Source: a virus
Lineage: Duplodnaviria; Heunggongvirae; Uroviricota; Caudoviricetes
Strand: one strand, 5' to 3'
Virus record (IMG/VR): IMGVR_UViG_3300047202_000291
DNA: 53,127 bases
Positions 5,260-50,160 of this stretch are shown here, in pieces. A model generated the notes under the pieces. It was not told the DNA's origin and made no database searches. It worked only from the letters and a program-made list of their open reading frames with translations. Every line of letters starts with the position of its first letter. Position 1 is the first letter of the stretch. The position numbers and the translations under genes are program-made.

Positions 5260-5646
5260 ATGGCTGTGAATGCGACAATCGATATAACTAATGGAGGTTT
5301 AAATATGATGGGTAGTTCAATGAGTAGTTGGCTTGTAACGATAGTGATATTTTTTGTGGTTTTATTGACCTTATTTATTTTGTCAAAGAACTTCAGGAGA
5401 TTTCTTTATGGTGCGGTAGTTTCGGGATTTCTTCTAATAGACTATTTTCTATCGAGATGGATTGGTGCATCGGCATCAGTGGGAGACTCAGAGCCATTGA
5501 AATGGACCGTCGTGGTAGTTGGATTTATCATAATCTCTGTGATTATAGGTAAATTTTTGGAAAAGACTGCATTTGTTAAGAGATTTGAAAAGAATTGGGG
5601 TGTGAATCGGAATGAAAAGTTATCTGGAAAGAAAAGGGTACGATAA
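5260..5646 (+). CDS. 3-TM membrane protein; N-terminus weakly resembles the coat-like proteins
   Basis: GGLNMMGSSMSSWLVTIV aligns without gaps to DGLGTVGAAFVSWLDLIV. Confidence 0.6.
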   Translation: MAVNATIDITNGGLNMMGSSMSSWLVTIVIFFVVLLTLFILSKNFRRFLYGAVVSGFLLIDYFLSRWIGASASVGDSEPLKWTVVVVGFIIISVIIGKFLEKTAFVKRFEKNWGVNRNEKLSGKKRVR

Positions 5647-13866: not shown

Positions 13867-14037
13867 ATGACTTATGTAGGAAACAACTATAGCAAGGCAG
13901 ACTTCCAGAACATCGTTGTAGACGGTCTAGGAACCGTTGGTGCAGCGTTTGTCAGCTGGGTAGACTTGATCGTGCTGTTGATTGTTCTCGGCTTCATTGT
14001 CGGAATATTCATCAAGCTCGGCAACCTCTTTAAGTAA
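13867..14037 (+). CDS. Putative major coat protein A (56 aa; not in ORF track)
   Basis: MTYVGNNYSKADFQNIVVDGLGTVGAAFVSWVDLIVLLIVLGFIVGIFIKLGNLFK; TATA plus GGAGGT SD; C-ending codon bias. Confidence 0.75.
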   Translation: MTYVGNNYSKADFQNIVVDGLGTVGAAFVSWVDLIVLLIVLGFIVGIFIKLGNLFK

Positions 14038-14107: not shown

Positions 14108-14275
14108 ATGACATATACCGCAAATTACAATAAAGCCGACTTTCAGAACATAGTTGTTGATGGTCTAGGAACAGTAGGCGCTGCCTTTGTTTCATGGCTT
14201 GATTTAATTGTGTTGCTGATTGTGCTTGGGTTTATTGTGGGTATCTTCATAAAACTGGGCAACCTCTTTAAGTGA
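14108..14275 (+). CDS. Putative major coat protein B (55 aa; tandem paralogue; not in ORF track)
   Basis: MTYTANYNKADFQNIVVDGLGTVGAAFVSWLDLIVLLIVLGFIVGIFIKLGNLFK; GGAGG SD; 46/47 aa identical to A over the C-terminal part. Confidence 0.75.
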   Translation: MTYTANYNKADFQNIVVDGLGTVGAAFVSWLDLIVLLIVLGFIVGIFIKLGNLFK

Positions 14276-43596: not shown

Positions 43597-44895
43597 ATGA
43601 AAAAAGAAATTTTAGTAGTGTTGGCATCCTTGATGATGCTATGTGTAATTAGTTCGGTTTATGCGGCAGTGACAGAATGTGTAGACGCGAGCGGTAATCC
43701 GCAGGCGGGTCCGGGTGCGTATCCTATGTATAATGATACTGGGGTAGTTACAAATGTGACGCTCGGACAGATTTGTGTAGATGCTACAAATTATGATGTG
43801 GTGCCAAATGTCACATATAATTGTGGAAATACAAGTGCCATGATAGATAACGCGTGTACCTATACAACGTATTTTACTGGATTCCTCGGTGACGGGACAG
43901 TGACTTGTACGAATGTAGGGTGGGTCACCGGAACAACATATACTTTGGCAGTCGGTTATATAGTTAATACCACGATTAATGCGAGCTGGGTAACGAGAGG
44001 AGATTATATCTCTGATGTTGGTGAGATCGTGCCTGCAAAGGATGCATGTTTAAATGAGTATACCTTGCAAGGACCGACCGGATATTGTGACGGAGCAGGC
44101 GCTCTCGATACAGATGGTTCATTGGCAAATGCTACTGATGGAAATGTCTGTATTATTGGAGTTGATTCTCAGCCAGATGCATCAGTTCATTGTATAGGCA
44201 CAGCCGATACTTGGTCGGATTGTGTTGAAAACCAATGTGAAATAGATGAATATTATGTTGGTTATAGTGTGGGAAATGCGACTGGATGCTCCGATACTGA
44301 TTGGGTTTTGATGGGCGTAAGTGATCCTGCAAATGGATATAGGGTAAGCAACACCGGTCATGCGAATCTTTGTACATATGTGGCAACCGGTGGGATTCCG
44401 GTCTATACTGGATGTGCAAATGCATATACGAGGAATGGAACATCTGGTTATTGTAATGGTGCTGGCGGGGATGCAACGACAACTTTGCATGTGACTGAGG
44501 GTAATGTTTGTTCAGCTGGTGCCAATGCGCAGCCAGGTGCAGGAACAAATTGTGGGACTTGGTATAATTGCGTACAGGGTCAATCTGCAATCAATACATA
44601 TTATGTTGGTTATGCAGCGTCAGGTTCAAGTTGCTCTGATACTGATTGGGTGGCAACAGGATCGCATGTAGATTTAGCGAGCGGTCTTAGAGCAAGATAC
44701 ACCGATCATGAGTCAACTTTATGTAGCACATCAGGATATAATGCAGCATATAATAAAGGGGATTTCGAGCCAATCGTGACGGATGCTATGGGAACTGCAG
44801 GAGCTGGTGTTGTAAGTTGGGCTGATCTCGCGGTGACTTTGCTCGTTATATTATTCCTGGGTGGAGCAGTCCTCAAATACAAAAAATTATTTTAA
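43597..44895 (+). CDS. Minor coat/adhesin: signal peptide, Cys-rich repeats and C-terminal coat domain
   Basis: Last 52 aa are 27/52 identical, ungapped, to coat B. Confidence 0.8.
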   Translation: MKKEILVVLASLMMLCVISSVYAAVTECVDASGNPQAGPGAYPMYNDTGVVTNVTLGQICVDATNYDVVPNVTYNCGNTSAMIDNACTYTTYFTGFLGDGTVTCTNVGWVTGTTYTLAVGYIVNTTINASWVTRGDYISDVGEIVPAKDACLNEYTLQGPTGYCDGAGALDTDGSLANATDGNVCIIGVDSQPDASVHCIGTADTWSDCVENQCEIDEYYVGYSVGNATGCSDTDWVLMGVSDPANGYRVSNTGHANLCTYVATGGIPVYTGCANAYTRNGTSGYCNGAGGDATTTLHVTEGNVCSAGANAQPGAGTNCGTWYNCVQGQSAINTYYVGYAASGSSCSDTDWVATGSHVDLASGLRARYTDHESTLCSTSGYNAAYNKGDFEPIVTDAMGTAGAGVVSWADLAVTLLVILFLGGAVLKYKKLF

Positions 44896-44923
44896 ATTTT
44901 TTATTTTTTATTTTAGGTAAAAA

Positions 44924-46036
44924 ATGAACAAATACAAATTATATGGAAAAGGTTGGTATTTTGAATCAATTAGGCATAGTCTTGCAGCTAAAGGAATAAA
45001 AACTTGGCAAAAGGAATATAAGTCCCTCGTCAAATCTTTTCCAGGTGAAAATCCAAGATTAACCAAGGAATTTGCTAGATTCCGGCAAGAAGATCCGGGT
45101 AAATATGATAAATTCAGGGTTAAAAAGACTAAAACAGGTAAAGAGCTTATATTCGGCCATAATAAAAAGATGCGTGTTTGGGAGTTACAGAGTGTCCTTG
45201 TTCCAAGAGTTTCAATGGCATCTAAAGACTATTCTTTCATAGGAACTGCAGATGAGAAGCCGGGGCAGTTCATAAAGGAGAATTTGGAGTCACATGAAGA
45301 TCATTCAATAGAGCATTATGCAAAAGGAGTTGAATATGTACTAAAGCATCCTTTTAAGGATCTTGATGGTGATTGGCTTTCATATAATGAAGCTGCAGGT
45401 AACCATGTTGAACTTTCAAAACATCCTGTTGAGCGTGCCGAAGAACGTGGAGCAGCATTATTTGGTCGTGTCTTGTCGCAGGCCAACATGGAACCTTTGA
45501 TTGAGCGGGGTCAAGGTAGGACATTTAGGGAAATAACAATGGATATTGCATTTGGTAGAAGATCGGGGGTCACAGATGACAACGAACTTCATCAAAAGAG
45601 CCAAAAGCCTTGGCATGATCGGATCAAAGGCGGTCTCGCAGATAAGAAGAAGCCATCTGATTTTGATCAGAAGCAACTTATAGATGGTGTTAAAGTTGAA
45701 ATAGAGCACACCTCAAATCCTTTAATTGCCAAAGAAATAGCTATGGATCATTTGACAGAAGATAAATTATATTATAAGAAATTGGAGCTTATGGAAAAGA
45801 AGAGACATTCGATGCAAGCAGAAACGGTAGGAGTAGTTACAGCTGAGGCTCTTGCTGGTGCGGTTGCTGAACATGAAAAGCGAGCAACACAAAGGCAGGC
45901 GTATCATCAGGCTCATATTTTGGAGCATCAGCATCATAAAGATATTATAGAAGAGCAGGGTTATGATGTGAGGTCACCAATTCAAAAAACTGCTGCATTT
46001 ATGCTTACGGATGAAGGCTTTGAAAAGCCACAATGA
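44924..46036 (+). CDS. Tagged protein 7: multidomain with a DUF5661-like domain and His-rich end
   Basis: Tag; GGLAD...GVKVEIEHT...AKEIAMDHLTED..YYKKLELME. Confidence 0.8.
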   Translation: MNKYKLYGKGWYFESIRHSLAAKGIKTWQKEYKSLVKSFPGENPRLTKEFARFRQEDPGKYDKFRVKKTKTGKELIFGHNKKMRVWELQSVLVPRVSMASKDYSFIGTADEKPGQFIKENLESHEDHSIEHYAKGVEYVLKHPFKDLDGDWLSYNEAAGNHVELSKHPVERAEERGAALFGRVLSQANMEPLIERGQGRTFREITMDIAFGRRSGVTDDNELHQKSQKPWHDRIKGGLADKKKPSDFDQKQLIDGVKVEIEHTSNPLIAKEIAMDHLTEDKLYYKKLELMEKKRHSMQAETVGVVTAEALAGAVAEHEKRATQRQAYHQAHILEHQHHKDIIEEQGYDVRSPIQKTAAFMLTDEGFEKPQ

Positions 46037-46050
46037 TGGAGGTAAAGAAA

Positions 46051-46149
46051 ATGGCAAAAAACAAATTTTGGAAAAACCCAGTTGCTGCGCTTGGCGCTGC
46101 CGGTAAGAAAGCAATACCTAAGATAAAGCACAAAATAAAAATAATGTAA
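46051..46149 (+). CDS. 32-aa basic microprotein
   Basis: GGAGGT SD at 46038; MAKNKFWKNPVAALGAAGKKAIPKIKHKIKIM. Confidence 0.6.
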   Translation: MAKNKFWKNPVAALGAAGKKAIPKIKHKIKIM

Positions 46150-46167
46150 ATTAGTGGAGGTGAAATA

Positions 46168-46449
46168 ATGAGTCCATATGTGCCCACTTATGTGGCGGGT
46201 GATTTGTCAGCAATCGGTGTAGATGCGGCTGGAACAGCAGGGGCAGCAGCTGTTGGTTGGATTCCCTTGCTTGTCGGAGCCGGCATTATATATAAAGGCA
46301 CCGAGCTTGGCATAAAGAAATATAAGACATTAAAGAAAGAAGCAAAGAAGCATCCAAGGAAAGCAATGGCTTATCGTGGATGGCATTATGATTCATATAG
46401 GCATTCATTAGCAGCGAAAGGTATAAAAACTGGAAGATATAGGAGGTAA
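46168..46449 (+). CDS. Tagged protein 8: coat-protein paralogue carrying the tag at its C-terminus
   Basis: N-terminal 33 aa are 15/33 identical to coat B; GWHYDSYRHSLAAKGIKT at aa 71-88; GGAGGTGA SD. Confidence 0.8.
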   Translation: MSPYVPTYVAGDLSAIGVDAAGTAGAAAVGWIPLLVGAGIIYKGTELGIKKYKTLKKEAKKHPRKAMAYRGWHYDSYRHSLAAKGIKTGRYRR

Positions 46450-46454
46450 TTAAA

Positions 46455-46817
46455 ATGAAATATCAAGGAAAAGGTTGGCGTTATGAAAATTATAGGCACA
46501 GTTTAGCAGCAAAAGGTATAAGAACAAAGATAAGACCAATTAGTCTTTACGCAAGACCGCCATATATGTACGAGCATATGCATGGTCAGGAGCCAATGCC
46601 TATCGAAGAGCCTATTAAGTTAAAAAAAGAAGAATATGAGACTATTTTTGAGAAAGGAACTGAAACTGCGGAGAATCTCGGTGGGCAATTAGGTGATTTT
46701 ATATTCAGGACCAATCCTGAAAGTAAGGAAACTGCTTTCGAGAAGGGCACTACAACAGCAGAAGAAAAAGGAAAAGCCCTTGGGGATAAGATTTTTCGTG
46801 GTCCAATTAGATTTTGA
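46455..46817 (+). CDS. Tagged protein 9 with an internal 30-aa tandem repeat
   Basis: Tag; ETIFEKGTETAENLGGQLGDFIFR and ETAFEKGTTTAEEKGKALGDKIFR. Confidence 0.8.
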   Translation: MKYQGKGWRYENYRHSLAAKGIRTKIRPISLYARPPYMYEHMHGQEPMPIEEPIKLKKEEYETIFEKGTETAENLGGQLGDFIFRTNPESKETAFEKGTTTAEEKGKALGDKIFRGPIRF

Positions 46818-47221: not shown

Positions 47222-47776
47222 ATGAAAGGTTGGCGATACGAAGGATATAGGCACAGTTTGGCAGCTAAAGGTATAAGGACCTTTAAGAAAGGGAAATATC
47301 ATTTCACTTTGCCAGGTTCAGAAGTCATAAAACTTTCGAAGGAAATCGAAAGTGAGCTTAAGCCTTTATCAAGGAGAATTGACATTGCGGGCAGTATACG
47401 AAGAAAAGTCGATGAGCCAGTTGATGTTGATATTGTGATGATTCCAAAAAATAAAGAGAAAGTTCGTGAGAAACTTGCACATCTCGGGAGAATTACTGCA
47501 CAGGGAGAAACTATGGTTGAGACGAAGATCAATGGAGTCGATGTAGATACTTATTTTGCAGAACCAGATTCATACGGTGCGCAGCTTATGACGAGAACCG
47601 GTCCTTGGCAAGGCAATCTTGGAAATCGGACTTTGGCAAAAAACAAATGCATGAAGCTTAGCCAATATGGTCTTTTTGACCGAAAAACAGGCAAAAGAAT
47701 AGCTGGAAGAACAGAAAAGGAGATTTATGAGGCCCTTGGTAAAAAATATAAAGAACCAGAACTCAGGGGAATGTAA
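47222..47776 (+). CDS. polX: Tagged protein 10: minimal DNA polymerase X (palm and thumb only)
   Basis: IAGSIRR..DVDIV, VDVD, QLMTRTG, KLSQYGLF, EKEIYEALGKKYKEPELR. Confidence 0.85.
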   Translation: MKGWRYEGYRHSLAAKGIRTFKKGKYHFTLPGSEVIKLSKEIESELKPLSRRIDIAGSIRRKVDEPVDVDIVMIPKNKEKVREKLAHLGRITAQGETMVETKINGVDVDTYFAEPDSYGAQLMTRTGPWQGNLGNRTLAKNKCMKLSQYGLFDRKTGKRIAGRTEKEIYEALGKKYKEPELRGM

Positions 47777-47834
47777 TACGATTTATACTCGAATTTATAA
47801 ATGACGAAATAAATTGAAAACACAGGGTGAAAAA

Positions 47835-49115
47835 ATGGAAAAAATGAAGATGAAAAATCCGAATAGGATTAAAGTGATGTTGCTTGTATTAACAGTATTC
47901 ATTTTGGGTGGAGCAATAGCAGTTACGCAATATGCATATGGTTCTCAGGTTATTGAGAAAAATGAGAATATGTATATGATTTCCCACACAGAGTATAGAT
48001 ATGGTGAGATGGGGCAAATCATCGTTAGACTGGTTGATTTCCAAGGGGATCCAATTGTCGTGGATAATTGTACTGCTTCAATATTATATCCCGATAAGAG
48101 TTTTTTTGCGCAGGATGCTTTGATGTTGGATTCGGAGAACATAACTGGAGATCATTATTATAATTTTACCACGCCAAATGGTCCGGAAGGAGTCTATGAA
48201 TACCAGGCGACCTGTAATTATGCTCCAAGTAAAACAAAAACTGCAACTAATTCATTTCACTTGTCTTCAGCATTTAACACAACTATAGCTGATCTTGAGA
48301 TTGCAATTGCAGATTTGACGGAGATAAATAGCACAGTAGTTGCTTTTAGAACAGAAGTTCAGGCAAATTTTAGTCAAGTTCAGTCTGTTCTTAGTATAAT
48401 TAATGGAACTGCTGAAGAAATTCAATATACTGTTGAGCAGGCTAATGCGACGATAAATGGGATTAACTCAAATCTGAATGACTTTATTACTAATACCACT
48501 CTCGCCTTGGCTACAATAGATGCAAATACTGTGGCTATTAATAATACAGTAAATGCAATTTATGCAGATCTTGCGACTTTGAATACAACAATGATTGTTA
48601 GATTTGATGCGATTGATGCATATATGTCAGCGAACTTTACTCAGGTATTTAGTAATATATCTGATTTAAGGCAGCTTGTGTATGATATTAATACGAGTAT
48701 CATTGATGCGGCGAATGCAATCAATTTGTCCTTATCAGGATACATCGCTGATTTATCTGCGCAATTAGATGCAGTTAATCTGTCCTTATCGACCCAGATT
48801 TCCGATTTATCAACGAAAGTTGATAATGTGAATCTGTCAATTAGTTCAAGTATAGCAGATTTTAGGCAGGAAGTTCAGGTTAATTTCAGTCAGGCTTGGG
48901 TGTGGTTTGATTTAATAAACACAACGACAATTAGCACCTATGATTATATGACCGGAACTCTGGCAGATAATATAGATAGTGTACTGACAACCATCGGAGT
49001 GATTAATGCGACAGTAAATAGGATTGAAGAGAAGACAGATGTGATAAACACAACAACTAAGCAAATCTTGCAGAATCAGGAAGATGAGGTCTTCATAAGT
49101 ACATATAGTGGATGA
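47835..49115 (+). CDS. Spike-like protein: MG2/Ig-like domain and long glycosylated coiled coil
   Basis: TATA at 47794; signal anchor; TEYRYGE...GVYEYQATC...SFHLS; heptad/sequon-rich stalk. Confidence 0.75.
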   Translation: MEKMKMKNPNRIKVMLLVLTVFILGGAIAVTQYAYGSQVIEKNENMYMISHTEYRYGEMGQIIVRLVDFQGDPIVVDNCTASILYPDKSFFAQDALMLDSENITGDHYYNFTTPNGPEGVYEYQATCNYAPSKTKTATNSFHLSSAFNTTIADLEIAIADLTEINSTVVAFRTEVQANFSQVQSVLSIINGTAEEIQYTVEQANATINGINSNLNDFITNTTLALATIDANTVAINNTVNAIYADLATLNTTMIVRFDAIDAYMSANFTQVFSNISDLRQLVYDINTSIIDAANAINLSLSGYIADLSAQLDAVNLSLSTQISDLSTKVDNVNLSISSSIADFRQEVQVNFSQAWVWFDLINTTTISTYDYMTGTLADNIDSVLTTIGVINATVNRIEEKTDVINTTTKQILQNQEDEVFISTYSG

Positions 49116-49119
49116 GAAT

Positions 49120-50160
49120 ATGGATAAGTATAAGCATTACGGTAAAGGTTGGTATTATGAGTCCCTGAGGCACTCTTTGGCAGCTAGGGGCATAAGATCA
49201 ACCTTTGCTTTCGATGATAGATCCAATATTGTTACAATGGAGGACAGGACTCCGGGTAGAATAAGACAATATAATAAATTTCTACAGGAAAATGCTACCT
49301 TGCCCAACGAGCAGTTAGCAATAGCCTTGATGGGTAGGTTTGGTGAAATCAAGCAGCAATATGCTGATAGGCTTGTGCGGGAATTCAGGAAATGGCAGGA
49401 AGTCCCTATTCCGAAGTATGTTTTAGAGCAAGATAAAGGTAAGGCTAAGCTAAGAGTTGCAGATTATCATGACGCGATCGATAAAGTTCTTAGTAAGGAT
49501 CATTATCAAAATGCTACGGATGAGGAGGTTATTGTATATCTTATAAAGCAATTTCCAGAAGTTAATGAGCGCTACGCGAAAGAATTGCTTTATCGGCATA
49601 AGAAATTTGAAGAAGATCAGAAGAGGGCAAAATTCGGTTGGCATGGTAATTATGCGTCAAAATTGACAGGATTTCCAATAGCTTATACAAAGCAGGGTAT
49701 TCCAATCACGATAAAGAATCCTTTAAGGACTTCCTTTAATGGGAAACGCTATCCCGTGACTCCGGAAGAAGTCAAGCAGGAATTTGATAATTTATCCGAT
49801 GAGGCTGTGGCTGGCATTAGAGAGATTAGCTTCCGTGATCCATCAGAAGTGCCAGGAAGTAAGCAGGGTCTCGCTTGGGCACAATATGCGCGCTCTGCTA
49901 AGAGAATTAACATATTCTCTCAGCCAAAGGTAGAGGCCCAAAATCCTGAGAATAGGCGTTATTTGATGGCATATGTGCTTCCTCATGAGGCCGCCCATCA
50001 TGCGACTTTACATAATATGAAACTTACTGAAGATCCTATGATAGTTGAGGAGGCTCGCGCAGATGCGATGGTATATGGCGAAGATCCATTGAATCCAAAG
50101 GTTTTGCAAAGGCGCATTGCTTTGAGGCAGGCTCAATTTGGTCCAAAGGGTACGGTTTAA
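49120..50160 (+). CDS. Tagged protein 11: zincin-like (HExxH) metallopeptidase
   Basis: Tag; VLPHEAAHH...EEARAD. Confidence 0.75.
   Translation: MDKYKHYGKGWYYESLRHSLAARGIRSTFAFDDRSNIVTMEDRTPGRIRQYNKFLQENATLPNEQLAIALMGRFGEIKQQYADRLVREFRKWQEVPIPKYVLEQDKGKAKLRVADYHDAIDKVLSKDHYQNATDEEVIVYLIKQFPEVNERYAKELLYRHKKFEEDQKRAKFGWHGNYASKLTGFPIAYTKQGIPITIKNPLRTSFNGKRYPVTPEEVKQEFDNLSDEAVAGIREISFRDPSEVPGSKQGLAWAQYARSAKRINIFSQPKVEAQNPENRRYLMAYVLPHEAAHHATLHNMKLTEDPMIVEEARADAMVYGEDPLNPKVLQRRIALRQAQFGPKGTV

Follow-up and report, generated by a model that had tools for sequence, protein, structure and literature searches.

Gene organization and conservation of the fusion locus

The window analyzed here, that is, the whole stretch of 53,127 nucleotides, derives from an uncultivated, probably archaeal virus; its GC content is approximately 38%, and nearly all of its genes lie on the plus strand. 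The gene under study, hereafter the fusion ORF, encodes a protein of 93 aa in which a coat-derived "P-type" module is followed by a Lys-rich helix and by a C-terminal copy of a tag that is shared with other proteins of the window (Table 1). The initial annotation had described this layout as a coat-like N-terminus, a Lys-rich linker, and a C-terminal tag, and all three parts were recovered at the positions listed in Table 1, with 10 Lys/Arg residues between positions 43 and 69 and a tag core that closely matches the tag profile. The Shine-Dalgarno sequence of the fusion ORF is strong, and the coat genes and the neighboring micro-ORF have similar sites. We also considered whether the C-terminal tag could be an artefact of read-through into the next gene, and rejected this because the fusion ORF has its own stop codon, located 5 nt before the next ATG, and because nine orthologue clusters keep the same arrangement.

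These nine clusters consist of proteins of 90-93 aa that share 57-97% identity and an identical three-part order. Gene order is kept as well: three contigs of a relative (L001-L003) carry a tagged DUF5661 gene, a 32-aa ORF, the fusion gene, and a 119-aa tagged gene in this succession. Compared with the L001 orthologue, the fusion ORF showed a dN/dS of 0.16 overall, with values of 0.40 for the module, 0.07 for the Lys-rich part, and 0 for the tag. Conservation of the fusion across relatives, which had been proposed as a check on the gene, was thus confirmed, and the identity, synteny, and substitution data indicate that the fusion ORF is a real gene under selection.

Table 1. Features of the fusion locus and of the coat-like reference genes in the window
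Feature	Position	Strand	Description	Remarks
Coat-like gene A	13867..14037	+	56 aa, homology reference	HMM and alignment
Coat-like gene B	14108..14275	+	55 aa	HMM, alignment, and BLASTP
True coat domain	44737..44892	+	C-terminus of a secreted Cys-rich protein of 432 aa (43597-44895)	Coat HMM E 1.7e-14, profile positions 3-55
Micro-ORF	46051..46149	+	Basic, 32 aa, own GGAGGT, directly 5' of the fusion gene	Called as a gene of 32 aa at this position in L001-L003 (L001 9892-9990), similar translations
Shine-Dalgarno-like GGAGGTGA	46156..46163	+	4 nt 5' of the fusion ORF ATG	Read from the sequence
Fusion ORF	46168..46449	+	93 aa; ATG 46168, TAA 46447-46449	Coat-derived module, Lys-rich helix, C-terminal tag
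"P-type" coat-like module	46177..46293	+	Residues 4-42	Y-x-P-T-Y-V-x-x-D ... D-x-x-G-T-x-G-A, Pro33 kink, short hydrophobic end
Lys-rich amphipathic helix and linker	46294..46374	+	Residues 43-69	Conserved; Met 5 residues before the GW of the tag
Shared tag core	46378..46431	+	Residues 71-88	G-W-x-x-[DE]-S-x-R-H-S-L-A-A-K-G-I-K-T, then basic tail G-R-Y-R-R
Next gene	46455..46817	+	120 aa, own N-terminal tag	Starts 5 nt past the fusion stop; synteny kept in L001-L003

Several features of the surrounding gene row are worth recording. In several independent tag rows (those of L053, L008, and L009, as well as the window at 43597-46449), a gene combining module and tag has as its near neighbor a secreted protein with a true coat domain at its end; the two are directly adjacent in L053, where the pair lies at 5621-7338 of contig VAPB010399959.1, a sequence of 121.5 kb and near-genome length. 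The tag row of the window also includes an untagged protein of 433 aa (47814-49115, plus strand) with an N-terminal hydrophobic anchor, long repeats rich in N-x-S/T, and weak Pfam matches of the coiled-coil type, and from these sequence traits it looks like a glycosylated surface fibre. Additionally, a row of nine tagged genes in L004 (G001; GCA_018221245.1, a contig of 13.2 kb binned as Woesearchaeota) ends in a permuted gene, P0011, in which the tag precedes the module. This bin is the sole hint at a host lineage, and the contig may be a binned viral contig and not a provirus.

Homology of the module to the coat-like proteins

Residues 3-36 of the fusion ORF could be aligned without gaps with coat-like proteins A and B and with the last 50 residues of the 432-aa protein, leaving 13 invariant columns (Y4, Y8, D12, I16, D19, G22, T23, G25, A26, V29, W31, L34, and V36). 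The N-terminus of the fusion ORF was identical to coat B at 15/34 positions and to the 432-aa protein at 16/34 positions, and the corresponding pairwise BLASTP comparisons gave E-values of 2e-6 and 1e-6. A coat-only HMM, based on 120 database homologues of the coat with no fusion member among them, was run on the 832 stop-to-stop ORFs of the window; it ranked coat A, coat B, and the 432-aa protein at the top, followed by the fusion ORF (E 5.9e-7, 24.9 bits), and the next match had an E-value of 0.0035. Reciprocally, the module HMM picked up coats A and B at E-values of 1.8e-9 and 2.7e-11. When 70 module sequences were compared with 41 coats by hhalign, the two alignments matched over 41 columns with a probability of 98.8% (E 5e-17). 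The coat similarity that had been claimed for the N-terminus therefore passes profile tests, both with the coat-only HMM and with hhalign. A weak match of the coat HMM (E 0.0035), restricted to two short stretches, was seen in a 128-aa ORF of the window (5260-5646, plus strand) and may simply be due to a hydrophobic segment.

The N-terminus had been called a coat paralogue, and this term needs to be narrowed: the homology is real, but the module is not a full paralogue of the coat. The match of the coat HMM on the fusion ORF is confined to positions 3-36 of the coat profile, so the module does not represent the whole coat domain. The hydrophobic, proline-free C-half of the coats (positions 37-56) is absent from the fusion ORF, which has Pro33 in place of Asp32 of the coats, followed by approximately ten hydrophobic residues. 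The remaining core is only marginally hydrophobic and is proline-kinked, with a best 19-residue Kyte-Doolittle mean of 1.77 versus 2.9 in the coats. The same distinction was observed across the two families, since one to three core prolines were present in 69 of 70 module sequences and none in 40 of 41 coats. While the stand-alone coat of about 55 aa ends in a short basic tail, the fusion ORF has a length of 93 aa and carries 51 residues, including 17 Lys/Arg, after the core. The coat family itself comprises at least 135 clusters of 55-56 aa with 73-95% identity, and we infer that these 55-aa proteins are virion coats. Taken together, the alignments and profiles indicate that residues 4-42 are derived from a coat-like protein, of which the N-terminal two thirds were kept and the hydrophobic C-half was swapped for a short proline-kinked segment.

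The shared tag

The tag core of the fusion ORF (residues 71-88) scored 50.4 bits against the tag HMM, higher than any other copy in the window or in the tested loci. The motif of the tag family, G-W-x-x-[DE]-S-x-R-H-S-L-A-A-[KR]-G-[IV], is present, at residues 71-88 of 93 instead of the usual N-terminal position. Across the 10 aligned copies of the window, the residues G, W, H, S, L, A, A, G, and I were invariant, and the core of the fusion ORF differed from that of the L001 orthologue by six synonymous and no non-synonymous changes. Apart from the fusion ORF, the tag carriers of the window have it at the N-terminus (nine clear cases and one weak), and the C-terminal location is found in the fusion ORF only. 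Two copies per protein, in tandem or internal positions, were detected in P0207, P0209, and P0219, and P0214 is a protein of 47 aa containing little beyond one tag. Because the tag occurs in tandem and internal copies, a free terminus is not needed, and the N-terminal position is not a defining property of the tag.

The tagged soluble proteins of the window comprise a PolX-like nucleotidyltransferase, a DUF5661 protein, and an HExxHH protein. The PolX-like protein (47222-47776, plus strand; 184 aa) matched the DNA polymerase beta thumb at an E-value of 1.9e-15 and the palm weakly; its tagged counterpart in the L001 row has 343 aa and is followed by a tagged DNA ligase. The third protein (49108-50160, plus strand) has an HExxHH ... 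EARAD motif of the metalloprotease type. No model in Pfam or NCBIfam recognized it, and it is a candidate for a protease involved in tag processing or maturation.

The wider family of module proteins

In an exhaustive profile search, 90 proteins were recovered (65 at an E-value of 1e-10 or better), and these were annotated with separate HMMs for the tag, the module, and the coat. Clustering at 50% identity gave 66 module-bearing representatives, so that the family contains at least 66 clusters. Tag and module were found on one polypeptide in 52 of the 66 representatives, a share that is perhaps somewhat inflated because the search profile contained tag columns, with the module alone scoring high enough for detection. 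The tag is N-terminal in 50 representatives and C-terminal in two (the cluster of the fusion gene and one protein of 78 aa); it is absent in the other 14, several of which are incomplete sequences. As a check free of this bias, 79 metagenome loci were inspected for which the tag had been the only selection criterion (499 kb in total, with 347 tagged ORFs). They hold nine module ORFs, at most one per locus, and all nine are tagged (five C-terminally, four N-terminally). These tag-selected rows often also encode secreted proteins with a terminal domain of the true coat type.

The position of the module within these proteins varies. The module directly follows the tag in 24 of the 50 N-tagged forms, and 24 have at least 90 aa before the module; at least 60 aa follow the module in 33, and both flanks are long in 10. 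The flanks are basic on average, with mean charges of +4.2/-0.85 in the 15 aa before the module and +6.9/-1.8 in the 20 aa after it. The same domains also appear on either side: Pfam DUF5661 precedes the module in P0145, P0147, and P0155 and follows it in P0150 and P0159, and five proteins have the HExGHH...EARAD motif N-terminal of the module, whereas in four it is found on the C-terminal side. Relatives that combine an HExxHH domain with the module are P0136, P0141, P0145, P0154, P0163, P0172, P0175, P0180, and P0194. Neither signal peptides nor additional hydrophobic segments were found among the 66 representatives.

Within the module, D12, G22, and G25 were invariant over 70 sequences, and Y4, P6, I16, D19, T23, A26, V29, P33, V36, and G44 were conserved in at least 90%. 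The family consensus Y-G-G-A-K-x-x-K-K runs on into the Lys-rich stretch and is kept across the same 70 sequences. The fusion ORF has the family motif and the Lys-rich helix, and its module scored 90 bits with the module HMM. By these comparisons, the fusion ORF is the smallest, minimal form within a family that is widespread and undescribed and that connects the coat with the tag system. The initial annotation had regarded the fusion as the strongest internal evidence that the tag is related to the virion. What stands is that genes of this class provide the best internal connection between tag and coat, as judged from the 52 of 66 families, the nine of nine tag-selected ORFs, and the shared gene row; the further step to the virion depends on the presumed role of the coat itself.

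Predicted structure and membrane topology

The Lys-rich part (residues 43-69) contains 10 Lys/Arg in 27 residues and has a hydrophobic moment of 0.47. AlphaFold2 (AF2), run on a deep alignment, predicted helices at residues 10-29 and 32-61 with a pLDDT of 82.8, reaching 90 or more over residues 31-60. The linker was modeled as an extension of the second helix, and the whole forms an extended kinked helix without a hairpin. A model of the whole 93-aa protein from a shallow alignment of 12 rows was uninformative, with a pLDDT of 57. Foldseek gave no match for the module model in the PDB, and a wide structural search with it retrieved generic long helices only, at Z-scores of about 5, with FtsB/FtsL and ATP synthase b among the best (Z approximately 5.3-5.4). 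Complex predictions for two coat copies and the module, entered as alignments, yielded no answer, with scores of 0.00 in both runs, and are neutral with respect to binding. A strict helical hairpin was considered for the module and, because the AF2 model is extended, is kept merely as one form of a same-side arrangement.

The 432-aa protein has an N-terminal signal peptide, visible in its translation, and the coat domain at its C-terminus, and a 68-aa homologue of the coat type, P0210, has a typical cleavable signal peptide before the Y-x-P-T-Y motif. The true coat domain is therefore oriented with its N-terminus outside, because it ends secreted proteins and is preceded by a cleavable leader in P0210. 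The initial annotation had extended this orientation to the fusion ORF and placed the tag on the inside for that reason. The inner side of the tag survives on other grounds, but the argument itself fails across the family, where 50 of 52 tags precede the module, basic residues cluster on each flank, and the same domain can stand before the module or after it. The N-side of the module in relatives is often a signal-less soluble domain of 90-330 aa. Given that signal peptides are missing, that basic flanks are found on both sides, and that the same domains occur in either position, both flanks of the module are probably located in one compartment, first the cytoplasm and then the particle interior. 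It follows that an outside N-terminus cannot be transferred from the coat to the module family.

For the fusion ORF considered by itself, an ordinary single span with the N-terminus outside and the C-terminus inside fits the charges and the core equally well. There is no Lys/Arg and there are two Asp residues before the core and 17 Lys/Arg after it, and 23-26 uncharged residues in a row are sufficient for a single span. The extended kinked helix of the AF2 model and the long single helices retrieved in the structural search also count against the same-side arrangement. The side of the coat layer that bears the tag is not readable from the fusion gene alone. Nevertheless, the same-side and N-out/C-in arrangements agree in that the tag of the fusion ORF most likely faces the cytoplasm or the virion interior.

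Proposed role, alternative explanations, and origin

We tentatively favor an explanation in which the fusion protein is a minimal anchor protein and adaptor, with its coat-derived module in or against the coat layer and its flanks and tag on the inner face. The module would embed in or pack against the coat or envelope layer from the inner side, in a kinked form that is either monotopic or embedded in the lattice, and both of its flanks would stay on the cytoplasmic face, later the virion interior. The Lys-rich helix (residues 43-61) might rest either on DNA or on the head groups of acidic lipids, and the tag would be exposed on the inner face, where it could meet a putative reader common to the tags of nearby soluble enzymes. 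The fusion protein might in this way couple the putative tag reader, be it a hub or a nucleoprotein, to the coat layer, or seed a tag-dependent layer there. An adaptor job of this kind is likely because the protein has no other body.

Among the other explanations, the one closest to the initial annotation takes the fusion protein for a single-pass coat paralogue, N-out and C-in, that assembles in parallel with the major coat while its tag and Lys-rich tail bind the genome and tether the core to the shell. This fits the N-out orientation of the true coat domain in the 432-aa protein and P0210, the acidic, K/R-free N-tail, the strongly basic C-side and the uncharged core of 23 residues, the straight kinked helix drawn by AF2, and an N-terminal motif rich in small residues (G-T-x-G-A-A) of the helix-packing kind. 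However, a uniform N-out orientation is untenable for a family in which identical domains stand on either side of the module and 50 relatives have the tag and up to approximately 330 aa of signal-less protein N-terminal of it, with basic flanks on both sides. Moreover, the C-half that gives the coats a firm membrane span is missing, and the tag is conserved too precisely for a mere basic patch; we regard this explanation as somewhat unlikely.

The tag could also act before assembly, as a cytoplasmic signal for processing, targeting, or a chaperone (e.g., for cleavage by the tagged HExxHH protein), in which case the fusion protein would be a small membrane-associated client. The occurrence of the tag in N-terminal, C-terminal, internal, and tandem positions, and nearly alone in P0214, marks it as a portable recognition unit that relies neither on a free end nor on a particular side of the module, as such a signal would be, and the HExxHH...EARAD domain is tagged in the window and often fused to the module in relatives. 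Against this, no cleavage site, protease family, or chaperone was identified, the searches of Pfam and NCBIfam with the HExxHH protein included, and the most canonical and most constrained tag is found on an anchor-helix-tag protein without an obvious cargo function; we consider this explanation unlikely. Finally, the 55-aa proteins and the module might have no place in the virion and instead remodel or mark a host membrane as a platform for replication, assembly, or egress, where the tag would recruit DNA enzymes and the fusion protein would be the docking seed. Several tagged proteins are indeed DNA enzymes (the PolX-like protein of the window, and the DNA ligase and PolX-like protein in L001), and no recognized capsid fold was found in the scanned parts of the window. 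Yet the row encodes secreted, Cys-rich, sequon-bearing proteins with true coat domains at their ends, together with other surface-type proteins, all of which resemble particle decorations, and the coat genes are in tandem, tiny, and extremely conserved, as is typical of major structural proteins. A platform outside the virion appears improbable.

Regarding its origin, the fusion gene probably goes back to a stand-alone module gene, like that of the untagged 78-aa protein P0151, whose stop codon was lost, so that its frame continued into the tag of the following gene. Met residues are found at the junctions: many internal modules begin with "M-A-Y", and the C-terminal tag has a Met five residues ahead of its GW. 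These relic residues point to the fusion of neighboring genes by loss of a stop codon, and P0151, together with the tag-only P0214, may represent the building blocks.

The anchor explanation that we favor could be part of a broader scheme, in which the tag is the docking peptide of a new cargo-loading system in large archaeal viruses, the coat-derived module is its attachment point, and the 93-aa protein is the minimal dedicated tether between the coat or envelope and a tag-organized inner layer of enzymes and nucleoprotein. We offer this scheme as a speculative possibility, with a modest chance of being correct. The tag is found on a large share of the proteins in large uncultivated archaeal viruses of this group, and the fusion gene class is the only place where it is physically joined to something with a recognizable structural relative, namely the coat-like protein. 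If the tag is a loading signal, it would represent a new principle of protein packaging in archaeal viruses and would account for how these viruses bring repair enzymes into their host. Constraints on the topology come from the permutations that occur in nature, in which both the tag and the other domains can stand on either side of the module, and a protein of 93 aa is small enough for synthesis.

Comparison with known systems

Searches of Pfam, PHROGs, and NCBIfam with the module, the Lys-rich part, and the tag recovered no family at a meaningful E-value, and when profiles of the module and coat alignments were run against PDB sequences, only chance matches appeared. A look-up in the ESM Atlas produced no usable lead, a scan of IMG/VR with the module alignment confirmed no relative, and no paper turned up in full-text searches with the motifs of the tag and the module.

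The likeness to the single-pass anchor proteins FtsB/FtsL and ATP synthase b is one of geometry only, as a membrane-type helix runs into a long polar helix in each case. There is no sequence relationship, and the Z-scores obtained are non-specific for long helices. The intramembrane domain of caveolin and the "proline knot" of oleosin are monotopic anchors with a central proline and both flanks in the cytoplasm. The module resembles them as an analogy of topology only, in that a hydrophobic stretch of approximately 23-30 residues is broken by a conserved proline and the flanks would lie on the same side. However, there is no homology, and the AF2 model of the module is an extended helix.

By architecture, the nearest known protein is pVIII of inoviruses, in particular that of the leaderless Pf3 type. 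This protein is small and helical; its N-tail is acidic, its middle hydrophobic, and its C-side basic and, in inoviruses, in contact with DNA. Versions of it that are paralogous or fused ("display" proteins) ride along with the major coat. The fusion protein is likewise small and predicted to be helical, and its acidic, hydrophobic, and basic parts follow in the same order. In contrast to pVIII, it has no sequence membership in the known coat families of Pfam, PHROGs, NCBIfam, or the PDB, it retains only the N-terminal two thirds of a coat, its core is weak and proline-kinked, and its family has large soluble domains on both sides of the module.

The tag, in turn, comes nearest in its logic to short peptides that direct proteins into particles. 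The capsid-targeting sequence of the internal proteins of phage T4 is removed by the prohead protease, and the cargo-loading peptides of encapsulins load cargo inside the shell. Fusions of cargo and shell exist in encapsulin systems and are of another kind, and we know of no fusion between the peptide and a shell module in T4. The tag described here differs from these peptides in sequence and in being fused also to a shell-derived hydrophobic module; what it has in common with them is that one short peptide, portable between protein ends, is carried by many unrelated proteins of a single element.
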